In this document: positions 1 through 3,995 of the stretch, one piece after another | How positions within the stretch are numbered: position 1 is the first letter of the stretch | Layout of the letters: each line of letters begins with the position of its first letter | Source of the DNA: a virus | Taxonomy: Duplodnaviria > Heunggongvirae > Uroviricota > Caudoviricetes | Virus record (IMG/VR): IMGVR_UViG_2802429228_000005 | Strand: one strand, 5' to 3' | Length of the DNA: 5,154 nt | Position numbers and translations under genes: made by a program | Notes under the pieces: generated by a model | Databases searched by the model: none | Seen by the model: only the letters and a program-made list of their open reading frames with translations | Told to the model about the DNA's origin: nothing

Positions 1-1968
1 TCGAAGAACGCGGCGAAAACCTCAGAAACGAATGCAGCTAACAGCGCACAGGCAGCAGCGGCCTCACAGACTGCATCGGCAAACTCCGCGACAGCAGCCC
101 AAAAATCAGAAACCAACGCGAAAAATAGCGAAACAGCCGCAAAGACGAGCGAAACCAACGCGAAGTCCAGCCAGACGGCAGCGAAAACCAGCGAAACGAA
201 TGCCAAAGTCAGTGAAACTGCGGCGAAAAACAGCCAGGCTGCAGCAGCTGAAAGCGAGAGCGCAGCAGCCGGTTCTGCGACTTCAGCAGCTGGATCAGCA
301 ACTGCTGCGGCTAACAGCCAGAAAGCTGCGAAGGCGAGCGAAACTAACGCAAAGTCCAGCCAGACGGCAGCGAAGACCAGCGAAACGAATGCCAAAGCCA
401 GCGAAACTGCGGCGAAAAGCAGTCAGGATGCAGCAGCCGAAAGCGAGAGTGCTGCAGCTGGTTCTGCAAGCGCGGCGGCTGCTTCTGCCACTGCATCAGC
501 TAACAGTCAAAAAGCAGCAAAAACCAGTGAAACCAACGCAAAGGTGAGCGAAACAGCGGCTGCGAACTCAGCGAAAGCATCCGCTGCAAGCCAGACAGCA
601 GCTAAAGCAAGTGAGGATGCAGCCAGAGAGTATGCAAGCCAGGCTGCGGAGCCGTATAAACAAGTTTTGCAGCCGCTTCCCGATGTGTGGATACCGTTTA
701 ACGATTCACTGGATATGATTACGGGCTTTTCGCCGTCATATAAAAGGATTGTTATTGGCGACGATGAAATAACAATGCCTGGCGACAAGATTGTAAAGTT
801 TAAACGCGCATCAAAAGCAACCTATATTAATAAATCTGGTGTGCTGACAGAGGCTGCCATTGACGAGCCACGATTTGAACGTGATGGCCTGCTTATTGAG
901 GGGCAAAGAACGAACTTCTTCCCGAACAGTACAGACCCTTTGAAGTGGAATAAGTCAACTTCACTGGACGTTACAGAAACAGGCACAGATAGTTTCGGTT
1001 TTAATTATGGCCGGTTTGTCGTACAGGATTCGATTGTTGGCACAAGTAAAGCGCATACCATTATAGGGCTGTATACAAGTACCGGAGGGGTTGATACTTC
1101 AGGTGACGAAAAGTATGTAACTATATCCTGTCGGGTAAAAAGTGAAGTTGATAATATCGCCGTTCGTATTTTATTTGAACATTATGATGGGGAAGTAAGG
1201 ACATCAATAGGAACAGCAAGCCTGAACCTTACCACCCGCATAATTAGCAAGACGGGTCAGACAAGCCGTGTTACAGCAAGGTCTGTTAAGGATGATGCAA
1301 CTGGCTGGATATTTTTTGAGGCTACATTAAAAGCAGATACAACAGAAAATACGGTTGGTGGTTTCGTCCAGTATTCTCCGGATACAGGTCAGATGGTGGC
1401 ATCAGGGGATTATCTCGATGTAACCACTCCACAGATTGAGGCTGGTACAGGCGCATCATCTTTTATTGTTACGGGGACGGCACCGGCAACGCGGGCAAGC
1501 GATATGGTGACAGTCCCAATCAAGAATAACCTTTATAATCTTCCTTTTACGGTTCTTTGTGAGGTACATAAGAACTGGTATAAAACGCCAAATGTAGCGC
1601 CGCGTGTTTTTGATACCGGCGGTCATCAAACCGGAGCGGGGATCGTAATGGGGTTTGGTTCATCAGGTGGGTACGACGGTTTTCCGTATTGCGATATAGG
1701 TGGTTCAGACCGACGAATAAATGAAAATGCCGGGCTGGAAAAAATGGTTATGGGGATGCGTGTAAAGTCAGATCAGTCTACGTGCTCAGTAAGTAACGGG
1801 CGTATATCCAGCGAAACAAAAACCACATGGTCATATATTCAGAACTCCGCAATTATCCGTATTGGAGGCCAGACTACAGCCGGGTTACGCCATTTATTTG
1901 GTCATATCAGGAATTTCAGAATATGGCACAAGGCATTGACTGATGCTCAGATGGGGGAGTCAATCTAA
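1..1968 (+). CDS. Side tail fiber protein, 3' portion (5'-partial, gene starts upstream of the window)
   Basis: Frame 1 is open from nt 1 to the TAA at 1966-1968; the first in-frame start (GTG 544) is internal, and the upstream codons continue the same repeat pattern, so the ORF-track call 544..1968 is a truncation artefact. The N-terminal part is Ala/Ser/Thr-rich with reiterated S-E-T-N-A-K and S-Q-T-A-A-K motifs typical of phage fiber shafts. The C-terminus (...IRIGGQTTAGLRHLFGHIRNFRIWHKALTDAQMGESI) matches the C-terminal signature of concanavalin-A/LamG-like jelly-roll lectin domains used as receptor-binding tips. Confidence 0.85.
   Translation, partial: SKNAAKTSETNAANSAQAAAASQTASANSATAAQKSETNAKNSETAAKTSETNAKSSQTAAKTSETNAKVSETAAKNSQAAAAESESAAAGSATSAAGSATAAANSQKAAKASETNAKSSQTAAKTSETNAKASETAAKSSQDAAAESESAAAGSASAAAASATASANSQKAAKTSETNAKVSETAAANSAKASAASQTAAKASEDAAREYASQAAEPYKQVLQPLPDVWIPFNDSLDMITGFSPSYKRIVIGDDEITMPGDKIVKFKRASKATYINKSGVLTEAAIDEPRFERDGLLIEGQRTNFFPNSTDPLKWNKSTSLDVTETGTDSFGFNYGRFVVQDSIVGTSKAHTIIGLYTSTGGVDTSGDEKYVTISCRVKSEVDNIAVRILFEHYDGEVRTSIGTASLNLTTRIISKTGQTSRVTARSVKDDATGWIFFEATLKADTTENTVGGFVQYSPDTGQMVASGDYLDVTTPQIEAGTGASSFIVTGTAPATRASDMVTVPIKNNLYNLPFTVLCEVHKNWYKTPNVAPRVFDTGGHQTGAGIVMGFGSSGGYDGFPYCDIGGSDRRINENAGLEKMVMGMRVKSDQSTCSVSNGRISSETKTTWSYIQNSAIIRIGGQTTAGLRHLFGHIRNFRIWHKALTDAQMGESI
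148..525 (+). repeat. In-frame tandem direct repeat, 189-bp unit (63 codons), two full copies (148-336 and 337-525) with partial, more diverged copies on both sides (about 1-147 and 526-600)
   Basis: Copy 1 translates SETNAKSSQTAAKTSETNAKVSETAAKNSQAAAAESESAAAGSATSAAGSATAAANSQKAAKA and copy 2 SETNAKSSQTAAKTSETNAKASETAAKSSQDAAAESESAAAGSASAAAASATASANSQKAAKT. They are near-identical at nucleotide level (e.g. aagtccagccagacggcagcgaa[a/g]accagcgaaacgaatgccaaag in both). A third unit begins at 526 (SETNAKVSETAAANS...). Confidence 0.85.
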
Positions 1969-2249
1969 TGAAAGATTTAACACTCAAATTTGAAGACAGG
2001 GCCGACTTTTCGGCCTTTATGGATAGCACTGGCTATTATGATGACGAGTCGATGCAGGATGATATTCTTATTGACGTGATAGGTAACGTGTACAAAGAAA
2101 CCGGAGAACTGACTGAAGATGGCGAACCGGTATGTGTTAAGGAAGACGGATATTTTGTAAACGTGCGCATCATTAATGATGTGAAAACACCGTCATTATT
2201 CGATGAATACGCGGTTGCTGTTGAGCATCAACTTCGTGGCTGGATGTGA
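1968..2249 (+). CDS. Hypothetical small acidic protein (93 aa) translationally coupled to the upstream fiber gene; possible fiber-associated chaperone or adaptor
   Basis: Its ATG (1968-1970) overlaps the fiber stop TAA (1966-1968) as TAATG. A GGGGAG Shine-Dalgarno lies at 1953-1959. I count 22 Asp+Glu against 8 Lys+Arg (net about -14). It sits between two fiber genes. I recognise no family motif. Confidence 0.65.
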   Translation: MKDLTLKFEDRADFSAFMDSTGYYDDESMQDDILIDVIGNVYKETGELTEDGEPVCVKEDGYFVNVRIINDVKTPSLFDEYAVAVEHQLRGWM

Positions 2250-2258
2250 GGAAGGAAA

Positions 2259-3299
2259 ATGGCTACATCGACAGTAATTCCTGATGATATCAAAACGCTA
2301 AAATCCGACGTTAGCAAATTAAAAACCGATCAAGGAAGCTACGCAACAAAATCATATGTAGACAGCAAAGATGAAACCGTTGGTGACTGGTCTGCTTCAT
2401 GGTATCAGCAGGTATTGCCAACTAGCGGAGCTATATTTGGGAGAAAACTCCGCTCAACTCACCGGACGGCAGGTGTTGAGGATGCGTATTGCGAACTATA
2501 CCTCAAAAAATGGATAGACAGTCCAGGTAACGCAATGGCGCGCCTTAACCTGAACGATAACGGGACAAACATTTGCTGGGACTTTACCAACCTTTATGGC
2601 GGTACGATGATTTTTCCCGGTGACAGCGGATACCTCAAAATGGGTAACTGCCTTATGTCATACAGCAAGCGTGGAAGTAACGCGCTTATTAAATTTGATT
2701 ACACCGACACATTACAGATCAAATATGCTAATCATGGGTCAACCATGACATTAAACACACAGGGAACCGCTCACGCTGGCGTAACAACTCGACTATGGGG
2801 CAATTCTAGCCGTCCGGTTGTTTATGAAGTTGGCGTAGATGAGGCTCTGTATATGTTCTACGCACAGAAAACTACCAGCAATACCTACGAATTAACGGTT
2901 AACGGCGCGTGCAATGCAAGTGCATTTAATCAAGGCTCTGACCGGGATCTGAAAGACAATATTCAGGTGATAGATAATGCAACCGACCGCATTCGTAAAA
3001 TGAACGGCTATACATACACGCTTAAAGAAAACGGTATGCCTTACGCTGGTGTTATTGCACAAGAAACCCTGGAAGCCATCCCCGAAGCCGTAGGGTCTAT
3101 GATGAAATATCCAGACGGCGGGAGTGGATTAGATGGAGAAGAAGGTGAACGGTATTACACTGTAGATTATTCTGGTGTTACTGGCTTGCTTGTTCAGGTA
3201 GCCAGAGAGTCAGACGACAGAATAACAGCACTGGAAGAAGAAAACGCAGAATTAAGACAAAGATTATCTGCAATTGAGGCGGCGCTTGCGTCTAAATAA
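2259..3299 (+). CDS. Tail fiber / tailspike-like protein (346 aa) with C-terminal intramolecular chaperone auto-processing domain (peptidase S74 type)
   Basis: Strong RBS GAGGAAGGA (2248-2256) ahead of ATG 2259. Residues 227-280 (GSDRDLKDNIQVIDNATDRIRKMNGYTYTLKENGMPYAGVIAQETLEAIPEAV) match the conserved S-D-x-x-L-K-x-N-I ... G-x-I-A-Q-E ... P-E-A-V core of the intramolecular chaperone domain of endosialidases and T5 pb1-type fibers. The C-terminal heptad-like stretch ITALEEENAELRQRLSAIEAALASK is the coiled-coil end usual for that domain. Confidence 0.85.
   Translation: MATSTVIPDDIKTLKSDVSKLKTDQGSYATKSYVDSKDETVGDWSASWYQQVLPTSGAIFGRKLRSTHRTAGVEDAYCELYLKKWIDSPGNAMARLNLNDNGTNICWDFTNLYGGTMIFPGDSGYLKMGNCLMSYSKRGSNALIKFDYTDTLQIKYANHGSTMTLNTQGTAHAGVTTRLWGNSSRPVVYEVGVDEALYMFYAQKTTSNTYELTVNGACNASAFNQGSDRDLKDNIQVIDNATDRIRKMNGYTYTLKENGMPYAGVIAQETLEAIPEAVGSMMKYPDGGSGLDGEEGERYYTVDYSGVTGLLVQVARESDDRITALEEENAELRQRLSAIEAALASK
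2937..3299 (+). other. Predicted intramolecular chaperone (S74) domain; the conserved Ser227 codon (tct 2937-2939) marks the expected autoproteolytic site
   Basis: The domain boundary is inferred from motif onset at G-S-D-R-D-L-K-D-N. In characterised members this module is released after trimer folding. Confidence 0.7.
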
Positions 3300-3306
3300 T
3301 ATTAAT

Positions 3307-3328
3307 GGGCCGAGCGCCCCGTTTTATT
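3307..3328 (+). terminator. Weak intrinsic terminator or attenuator candidate downstream of the S74 fiber gene
   Basis: A 4-bp all-GC stem (GGGC 3307-3310 pairing with GCCC 3316-3319) with a 5-nt loop is followed by C then GTTTTATT. The stem is short, so termination would be partial at best and the downstream membrane-protein gene is probably co-transcribed. Confidence 0.25.
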
Positions 3329-3341
3329 GGGTAGGATGAAA

Positions 3342-3629
3342 ATGGATATAACACCTTTCCTTCATGCTCTTTGTGCTGTGGCTGCGCAGCTACTGATTGG
3401 TCTTTTTACCGGGAACTGGGCTTACGGAGCGATAGCCGGTTGTACGTTCTTCATTGCGCGTGAACACACCCAGGCAGAATATCGCTGGATTGAAATGTTC
3501 GGGCATGGCAAGCGTATGAATATGCCGTGGTGGGGCGGTTTTGATCCACGTGCATGGGATGTGGCAAGCCTGATGGATTTTGCTGTGCCGGTGGTGGCGT
3601 GTCTGCTGATCTGGATGTTGATCCGTTAA
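3342..3629 (+). CDS. Small hypothetical inner-membrane protein (about 95 aa, 2-3 predicted transmembrane segments); accessory (moron-like) gene
   Basis: The ORF track opens at TTG 3327. ATG 3342 is the more plausible start because AGGA (3333-3336) sits 5 nt upstream; ATG 3336 is also possible. Hydrophobic stretches FLHALCAVAAQLLIGLFTGNWAYGAIAGCTFFIA and VASLMDFAVPVVACLLIWMLI flank a polar W/G/P-rich loop (RWIEMFGHGKRMNMPWWGGFDPRAW). I cannot assign a family. Confidence 0.6.
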   Translation: MDITPFLHALCAVAAQLLIGLFTGNWAYGAIAGCTFFIAREHTQAEYRWIEMFGHGKRMNMPWWGGFDPRAWDVASLMDFAVPVVACLLIWMLIR

Positions 3630-3746: not shown

Positions 3747-3995
3747 TTAGTGAACAAACCACTCGTCAGCAGACTCCCAGGTATCTTTCAGAGTTTCCTG
3801 AACAAAAGTTTTAGCTGAATCTTTATCGGCGGTGCGCGTAACAGAAAGGCCATCGTTGCTGGTGGCTTTTACGATCACCTCTACATCGTCATAACGTTTA
3901 CTGATGCGTCGGGTTAATTCTTCCTTTAACGCATCCACAGCACCGGTTGGCATTTTAGTCATTTTTTCTTTGGCTATGCAGATTTCAATACGCAT
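3747..3995 (-). CDS. dinI: DinI-family protein (82 aa), SOS-inducible RecA modulator homolog
   Basis: The translation [82 protein letters not shown] aligns along its length with E. coli DinI as I recall it (MRIEVTIAK...P.GA.DAL..EL.RRI...LSV...QETWESADDWFV). SD AGAGGGA lies 5 nt upstream of the ATG (minus strand). Two LexA boxes sit in its promoter. Confidence 0.88.

Follow-up and report, generated by a model that had tools for sequence, protein, structure and literature searches.

A short S74 fibre protein as probable distal subunit of a composite side tail fibre in lambdoid prophages

Introduction

The 5154-nt stretch of DNA analysed here in its entirety (the window; IMG/VR virus record IMGVR_UViG_2802429228_000005) is the right end of a lambdoid Escherichia coli prophage. 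It contains most of a side tail fibre gene (stf), a small acidic gene (orf93) and a short gene (orf346), whose product ends in a Peptidase_S74 intramolecular chaperone domain. What is a second fibre-like protein of only 346 residues doing behind a long fibre, and to what would it be attached? An earlier note, made from the sequence alone, had recognized the open reading frame (ORF) with its S74-like C-terminal domain, the long fibre and the acidic ORF upstream, all of which are present as described, and had suggested a dual cassette in which a main fibre carries a piggy-backing short one. The analysis points the same way: orf346 is probably a structural component of the virion and forms the distal, exchangeable subunit of a side tail fibre of composite build. 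It is the lambdoid-prophage member of a layout already described for virulent coliphages.

Results and discussion

A fibre protein with its own chaperone

The orf346 gene begins 9 nt past the orf93 stop codon and has its own ribosome-binding site in the Shine-Dalgarno-like sequence GAGGAAGGA. PHROG 4563 ('tail fiber protein') matches the protein from end to end (346/346 residues, E 5e-213). Pfam Peptidase_S74 (PF13884) aligns with residues 227-278 at E 8.6e-14, with 52 bits against a gathering cut-off of 22, and orf346 is the only S74 protein in the window. The motif GSDRDLKDNI begins at G226, which makes S227 the candidate scissile serine with 226 residues before it, as the earlier note had read. 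In an alignment of 36 homologues with identities down to 34%, residues S227, D228, L231 and K232 do not vary, and the +5 spacing of the S227-K232 dyad equals that of Ser1264/Lys1269 in T5 pb1. A C-terminal helix is predicted at residues 305-344, with a predicted local distance difference test score (pLDDT) of 84-92 from about residue 321 in the AlphaFold2 (AF2) monomer, and a profile search of the PDB aligns the chaperone with S16 gp37 (6f45, E 8e-8). Pfam score, Ser/Lys dyad and C-terminal position with a long helix all agree with membership of the S74 family.

T5 pb1 (4UW7/4UW8) and K1F endosialidase also carry a C-terminal S74 domain with the dyad at +5, and cleavage just before the serine is expected in them as in orf346. 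In pb1 the mature chain stops at residue 1263 after cleavage, and the tip that binds O-antigen becomes exposed once the chaperone is released (PMC4690869). The arrangement differs in that pb1 is one tail-anchored chain of 1396 residues with a bullet-shaped tip, whereas orf346 is a separate short protein.

Against seven other alleles, the ratio of nonsynonymous to synonymous substitution rates (dN/dS) of orf346 is 0.11-0.36 overall and 0.08-0.44 by region (N-terminus, tip and chaperone, with one region saturated). By this measure orf346 is a functional gene under purifying selection. The synonymous rate differs sharply along the gene, which indicates recombination.

A conserved candidate plug ahead of a variable tip

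The order of domains that the sequence of orf346 shows is a plug motif (residues 1-15), a heptad helix (about 9-30), a beta-rich tip (35-226) and the chaperone (227-346). No other part of the mature protein is conserved as widely as its first 15 or so residues. They follow the motif M[AV]TxT[VIN]IPxDIxxLK, which is retained in relatives at 40-45% identity and in which T5, D10 and K15 are invariant. The same motif opens a 234-aa allele of the gene, KarlJaspers bas06_0035, KarlBarth bas17_0030 and IrisVonRoten Gp24, all otherwise unrelated in sequence. When 80 IMG/VR loci gathered through orf93 were analysed together with seven further loci, the gene after orf93 began with this motif in 84 of the 84 that have sequence downstream; it belongs either to the 346-aa type or to the allele of 229-234 aa. 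The earlier note had seen no obvious anchoring domain in orf346; the conserved N-terminus, which opens every gene in this slot, speaks against that view. These residues are probably a docking motif ahead of a coiled coil, and the target would be the proximal fibre rather than the tail.

The helix at residues 9-30 appears in the AF2 model with moderate confidence, and in the alignment the stalks of relatives hold one to five additional TLKSDVS-type heptads. Variation among the 346-type alleles is greatest at residues ~35-115. The last ~65 residues of the tip (~160-226), directly before S227, give profile matches to C-terminal structures of T4 gp34 (5nxh, E 3.6e-10; 4uxe, E 7e-9) and are predicted to form a gp34-type triangular beta-sheet domain. 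In gp34 this P-type domain (4UXE, 5NXF, 5NXH) is a trimeric antiparallel beta-sheet internal to a long proximal fibre, whereas mature orf346 ends with it.

Residues 92-337 and 132-342 match the C-ends of fibre PHROGs of 1567 and 1210 residues. The tip and chaperone also match lambdoid single-chain Stf proteins, such as that of mEp460, and recur at 47% identity in a lateral fibre of the rV5-like phage MaxBurger. Because residues 92-342 match the C-termini of long single-chain fibres, tip and chaperone together are a module that is also found fused to long shafts; the N-terminal 91 residues of orf346 do not occur in the long fibres. The MaxBurger protein is presumably RBP_11, which ends in an S74 domain and for which cryo-EM density of the peptidase domain is absent (PMC12143355).

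The mature part of orf346 is rich in Gly, Asn, Thr, Ser and Tyr, as the earlier note had said (41% of residues 1-226). Its proposal that this part might be enzymatic is unsupported, since no catalytic domain (pectate-lyase-like beta-helix, sialidase, esterase or lyase) was detected in orf346 in Pfam, NCBIfam, the PHROGs or the PDB. The matches of orf346 in these databases were confined to fibre proteins and S74 domains. No NCBIfam model matches orf346, orf93 or the membrane ORF downstream. The PDB search with an alignment profile was more informative than the single-sequence search, which yielded a weak match to S16 gp37 and chance matches to UHRF1; neither search matched the orf346 tip to pb1(970-1263).

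A triad conserved across tail types

Full-length short relatives of orf346 are known down to 40% identity, with lengths of 307-384 aa, and the 234-aa allele is common, so that 'unusually short', the earlier description, holds only in a relative sense. On metagenomic contigs the whole triad is conserved at 40-50% identity: a fibre of 646-702 aa (partial in one contig), a protein of 91-92 aa that is 40-51% identical to orf93, and an S74 protein of 307-348 aa. The backbones of these contigs are Drexlerviridae-like and Queuovirinae-like, with QueC/FolE/QueD genes on one of the contigs. The long fibres share a C-terminal module of ~430 residues, from QPLPDVWIPFNDSLDMITGF to RHLFGHVRNFRIWHKALTD, and their N-termini differ with the tail type.

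Among isolated phages, orf346 is carried by the lambdoid phages Tritos, 2G7b, HannyBb and PhiR63_1, the N15-like PhiR46_1 and the Nonagvirus-type ESCO3 and JenP1. The triad is present, besides in lambdoid and N15-like isolates, in the Nonagviruses JenP1/JenP2 and ESCO3, in KarlJaspers (Drexlerviridae), KarlBarth (Dhillonvirus) and IrisVonRoten (T5-like); in the last three, each motif-bearing protein follows a homologous head-bearing fibre and a 92-aa protein. A full-length match to orf346 (at least 80% coverage), annotated as 'tail fiber domain-containing protein', occurs in 471 of the 5426 complete E. coli genomes. The corresponding counts are 988/5426 for the orf93 allele and 740/5426 for the 234-aa distal allele, and the two distal alleles roughly account for all copies of orf93. 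Of the 1121 matching places in complete genomes, 42 are on plasmids, for example the 46-47-kb NZ_CP165740.1 and NZ_CP101200.1. Both N15-like linear plasmid-prophages (telR site, ParA/ParB) and integrated lambdoid prophages carry the fibre module.

The alternative allele, of 229-234 aa, occupies the same slot at L016:6292-6996 and at 28 other IMG/VR loci. It combines an orf346-type N-terminus with a longer heptad stalk, a very small and different tip and a different S74-like domain (SSIRYK); if cleaved at SSIRYK, its mature part would be only ~115 residues long. The 346-aa and 234-aa alleles both occur in combination with all classes of Stf-head allele. The existence of two main alleles, the divergence of residues ~35-115, the mosaic synonymous rates and the free reassortment with heads together argue that the distal subunit is variable and exchanged. 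Three traits to be expected of a distal subunit are found in orf346: the shared N-terminal motif, the position after a head and a 92-93-aa gene, and a variable, exchanged tip.

A different arrangement is seen in KarlBarth bas17_0030/0031 (L091:4770-5649), where the motif is kept ahead of a different tip that has no S74 domain and is encoded in two overlapping ORFs. These may reflect a frameshift or a genuinely two-part tip.

Distal copies in some loci are truncated or split (90, 189, 194 and 299 aa). Together with the match of residues 92-342 to long-fibre C-termini and the location close to the end of the prophage, where the DinI-like and integrase genes follow, such copies might suggest that orf346 is a decaying remnant, left from the 3' end of what was once a single-chain Stf, or else a prophage moron without a structural role. 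The 346-aa length is nevertheless retained in most loci, the full-length protein is frequent in complete E. coli genomes, the triad is conserved at the lateral-fibre locus of strictly virulent phages, and dN/dS is low wherever it could be computed, even in the N-terminal 91 residues, which have no counterpart in long fibres. A remnant or pseudogene was rejected on the substitution ratios and the conserved unique N-terminus, and this explanation as a whole is very improbable.

The conservation of the triad also bears on whether orf346 is an independent second fibre, attached directly to the tail tip or baseplate (for instance to J or at the Stf attachment site), in which case the virion would carry two fibre sets. 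orf346 is indeed a separate polypeptide with its own ribosome-binding site, Stf heads do occur as fibre ends without it, and many phages have two receptor-binding proteins that are independent of each other (PMC11990801). A tail anchor should co-vary with the tail, yet the N-terminal motif is the same despite unrelated tail tips (lambda-type J, T5-type and Drexlerviridae). Moreover, an orf346-type gene always lies directly after a Stf head and orf93, and fifteen residues with a coiled coil would make a very small baseplate anchor. We consider direct attachment unlikely. If orf346 is instead the distal subunit of the Stf fibre, the partner of its plug should be the Stf head or orf93, because the tail-tip proteins differ across these lineages and, of the flanking genes that were compared, these two alone are shared.

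The Stf head and the acidic protein

The frame-1 translation of stf covers positions 137-793 of the 793 in PHROG 1419 (tail protein). Full-length homologues have 792-799 aa, are located after J and lom, and are annotated as side tail fibre or 'prophage tail fiber N-terminal domain-containing protein'. Neither Pfam nor NCBIfam finds an S74 domain in Stf. Its C-terminal module matches the NCBIfam GTA_spike_fiber (GTA/head-spike-fibre) domain (E 1e-18), and the head has a weak Laminin_G_3/ConA-like match that lies below the cut-off (E 0.0016). The head is 40-53% identical to the C-ends of IrisVonRoten Gp22, KarlBarth 0028, phage 21 Stf, KarlJaspers 0037 and EmilHeitz bas49_0026; in the last of these the identity is 40% and extends over the C-terminal ~440 residues. 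In the fibre atlas, cryo-EM confirmed a 'lectin-like head' in EmilHeitz RBP_10 (PMC12143355), which we take to be bas49_0026. Within the Stf shaft, a 189-nt tandem repeat (2.2 copies, 82% matches) has high GC content and a strong AT skew; a 171-aa Arg/Gln/Pro-rich ORF in another frame (32..547) is a spurious by-product of this repeat.

The ATG of orf93 overlaps the stf stop codon (ATGA), consistent with translational coupling to stf. The protein matches PHROG 1361 (function not assigned) at E 4e-45, and no match was found in Pfam or NCBIfam, including the Tfa/Caudo_TAP families. Homologues occur in 179-203 phage records, always directly after a homologous Stf head, in lambdoid, Drexlerviridae, Dhillonvirus, Queuovirinae, T5-like and rV5-like phages. 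The small protein is also found where there is no distal fibre. In phage 21 (OL657228.1, 21291-21875) the distal gene is missing and 12 nt separate the 92-aa gene from that of the membrane protein, and in the rV5-like EmilHeitz the gene after the small protein encodes an unrelated protein without the N-terminal motif. Its presence in these two phages indicates that orf93 belongs to the Stf head and not to the short fibre. The acidic ORF, which the earlier note had counted as part of the receptor-binding cassette, goes with the head. The idea of orf93 as an adaptor dedicated to the short fibre alone is weakened by the same two phages.

Since orf93 occupies the tfa position and Stf has no chaperone domain of its own, orf93 is a candidate chaperone of the Stf head. 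Alternatively, it may stay in place as a partner of the head and help to form the socket into which the distal subunit would fit. The C-terminal 'LRxW' of the small protein is kept wherever a fibre with the N-terminal motif follows, and also in phage 21, and diverges in EmilHeitz. The fibre region of phage 21 is followed by a sitABCD iron/manganese transporter operon.

The missing chaperone of Stf could also be sought in orf346 itself, above all in its 225-234-aa allele, which would then be mainly an assembly factor for the long fibre and not a receptor-binding protein. Homologues in KarlJaspers, KurtStettler and HMD-P4 are annotated as 'putative lateral tail fiber chaperone', and in the 234-aa allele the S74-like serine motif, read from the sequence, lies at about residue 117, so that the mature part would be mostly coiled coil. 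S74 chaperone domains, though, work in cis, each on its own polypeptide. T5 pb1 is an example (PMC4690869). In addition, orf346 has a beta-rich tip of ~190 residues that is homologous to bona fide fibre ends, its allelic, mosaic variation is typical of receptor-binding domains, the classical tfa position is taken by orf93, and phage 21 and EmilHeitz have the head without orf346. A principal role in assembly of the long fibre is improbable, still more so than direct attachment to the tail.

Comparison with known composite fibres

The closest known counterpart is found in IrisVonRoten (Bas32). The genes for Gp22, Gp23 and Gp24 have the same order as in the window, the Gp22 head is 52% identical to the window Stf over 743 aligned columns, and the 92-aa protein is 38% identical to orf93. 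Gp24 opens with the same motif, MVTKTVIPTDITKLK, and ends in an S74 chaperone, as orf346 does. In the predicted-structure model of the BASEL authors, a T-shaped Gp24 is docked on the proximal fibre Gp22, whose C-terminus forms a protruding galectin-like domain, proposed as an additional receptor-binding domain (PMC11990801). The conserved triad and this model fit the earlier suggestion of a main fibre with a short fibre riding on it. Gp24 differs from orf346 in being 574 aa long and T-shaped, with Gp12-like and T5-like receptor-binding domains, and beyond the N-terminal motif and the S74 domain the two show no detectable similarity. IrisVonRoten is a virulent, T5-like phage, whereas orf346 belongs to a lambdoid prophage whose tail tip is of the J type. 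Also close are the distal lateral-fibre subunits of the Drexlerviridae, Dhillonvirus and Queuovirinae phages of the BASEL collection (PMC11990801; PMC8594841). Lateral fibres can consist of one polypeptide or of two or more (PMC8594841), and the 92-aa protein is not discussed in the IrisVonRoten and BASEL papers (PMC11990801; PMC8594841).

The best experimental precedent for the piggy-back mechanism, by analogy, is LtfA with LtfB of DT57C and DT571/2. LtfB is an S74 fibre without a virion anchor that rides on LtfA through its N-terminal ~45 aa, and genetics shows that the two proteins recognize different O-antigens (PMC4728585; PMC10713586). The likeness has limits. Both DT57C fibres have S74 domains, in contrast to the window, where orf346 alone has one; the branch point of LtfB is placed midway along LtfA; and the docking sequences differ, as the LtfB N-terminus resembles phiEco32 gp15 and not the orf346 motif. 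No gene of the orf93 type has been described for DT57C, which was not among the best 60 matches to the 92-aa protein, although these included many T5-like phages. The SH6 paper (PMC5238451) was considered as a precedent and set aside, as it concerns a single-chain S74 fibre.

The locus of the window is also that of lambda Stf and Tfa, with J, lom, stf and a small downstream gene, and the N-terminal and shaft region of Stf in this class of prophage is homologous to that of lambda. Lambda Stf ends in a T4 gp37-like tip, for whose assembly Tfa serves as a separate chaperone, and lambda is not known to have a distal subunit. The window, by contrast, has a lectin-like Stf head, an unrelated acidic protein of 93 aa in the tfa position and an S74 fibre as a third gene. 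Searches of the literature found no explicit description of this module in lambdoid phages.

A model for assembly and host recognition

On the reading of orf346 as a distal subunit, the chaperone domain would bring three chains into register and drive folding of the trimeric tip. It would then cut itself off between G226 and S227, leaving a mature chain of 25 kDa with the tip exposed. The mature trimer would not be bound directly to the tail; its plug would dock on the lectin-like head of Stf, whose N-terminus would anchor the composite fibre to the lambda-type tail tip. orf93 may join in docking, whether by helping the head to fold or by contributing to the socket. Once assembled, the fibre would offer two parts that could bind receptors: the lectin-like head of Stf and the tip of the distal subunit. 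Both most likely bind surface glycans such as O-antigen in reversible primary adsorption, while terminal receptor recognition would stay with J. Recombination could swap the distal module independently of the Stf head and so tune host range. Presence in the virion, docking, cleavage and receptor binding of orf346 are in this scheme predicted from sequence, and expansion of the host range through dual binding parts is plausible by analogy.

Several points weigh against this interpretation. Docking in the homologous IrisVonRoten system comes from a structure prediction. BLAST gives no match between orf346 and Gp24, the likeness being confined to the short N-terminal motif. As phage 21 and EmilHeitz have no distal gene, the distal subunit must be dispensable and the head able to end a fibre. 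Lastly, the AF2 monomer, built on the 36-sequence alignment, has a mean pLDDT of 60.5 and a predicted template modelling score of 0.33, and a Foldseek search of the PDB with it gave nothing at E < 0.3 (T5 pb1, 4uw8, ranked 31st with E 1.5 for this low-confidence model). A poor monomer model is expected of an intertwined trimer, and agreement of Foldseek with the gp34 sequence-profile match is the sole fold inference taken from it.

A bolder version of the model can be entertained, tentatively, as rather less likely than not. The plug, the lectin-like Stf head and the 92-93-aa protein would form a universal plug-and-socket joint in at least six coliphage groups, with the small protein kept in the virion as a structural adaptor instead of acting simply as a chaperone. 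The groups would be the lambdoid, N15-like, Drexlerviridae, Dhillonvirus, Queuovirinae and T5-like phages.

Layout of the window

The features are collected in Table 1. The annotation of E. coli CUVM3 shows the order J, lom, stf, orf93, orf346 and small membrane ORF, adjoining intS/argW, and that of the N15-like linear plasmid-prophage PhiR46_1 shows this order too. Since another integrase (IntS at argW) flanks the module in relatives, the fibre module is common to prophages with different integration modules. A scan for promoters and terminators around orf346 gave counts not above those of shuffled sequence.

The small membrane protein has 95 aa and two transmembrane segments, and its gene comes immediately behind the fibre module both in lambdoid prophages and in phage 21. 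The versions of the module in virulent phages lack this gene, which may be a lysogenic-conversion or exclusion gene. The TTG start at 3327 in the program-made ORF list is probably wrong and the ATG at 3342 is the probable start, because homologues begin with MDI(T/S)P.

Table 1. Coordinates of features in the window and of orf93-family copies elsewhere
Feature	Position	Strand	Basis or remark
Stf, C-terminal 655 residues (proximal subunit)	1..1968	+	PHROG 1419 match; N-terminus upstream of window
Stf shaft, Ala/Lys/Ser/Thr-rich, repeated	127..543	+	Tandem Repeats Finder, score 582
Stf conserved C-terminal module (lectin-like head)	670..1968	+	from QPLPDVWIPFNDSL to RHLFGHIRNFRIWHKALTDAQMGESI
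orf93, acidic ORF, 93 aa, isoelectric point 4.06	1968..2249	+	PHROG 1361
Shine-Dalgarno-like GAGGAAGGA of orf346	2248-2256	+	read from sequence
orf346, short fibre protein, 346 aa, ATG start, precursor 38.1 kDa	2259..3299	+	
orf346 N-terminal docking ('plug') motif, residues 1-15, MATSTVIPDDIKTLK (putative)	2259..2303	+	conservation
orf346 predicted alpha-helical heptad-like stalk, residues 9-30	2283..2348	+	AF2 model, moderate confidence
orf346 beta-rich mature tip, residues 35-226 (predicted)	2361..2936	+	alignment and profile matches
orf346 Peptidase_S74 intramolecular chaperone, residues 227-346	2937..3296	+	Pfam
orf346 candidate catalytic dyad, codons of S227 and K232	2937-2939; 2952-2954	+	
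Small membrane protein	3327/3342-3629	+	PHROG 1443, function not assigned
DinI-like gene	3747-3995	-	Pfam E 1e-19
Tyrosine integrase, 365 aa	4057-5154	-	start codon is exact window end
orf93-family copies in other loci	L088:5001-5279; L089:4501-4779; L092:4501-4833		L089 is phage 21

Implications

The gain from these results is one of extension and annotation and not of a new principle, because the concept has been published for the virulent BASEL phages. Side tail fibres of lambdoid phages are usually seen as Stf plus Tfa; a large class of E. coli prophages probably uses three genes instead, with a distal module that is short, predicted to be self-maturing, and freely exchangeable. For annotation and for the prediction of host range, a 'tail fiber domain-containing protein' in this position should be counted with Stf instead of being taken for a fibre of its own. 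The conserved head, together with the plug of 15 residues, also offers an obvious junction for chimeric receptor-binding proteins on lambda-type delivery particles. If the universal joint is real, distal receptor-binding modules could move between temperate and virulent phages without re-adapting their attachment, and nearly a fifth of complete E. coli genomes would carry lambdoid side fibres that are bipartite and two-domain, with two interchangeable distal alleles.

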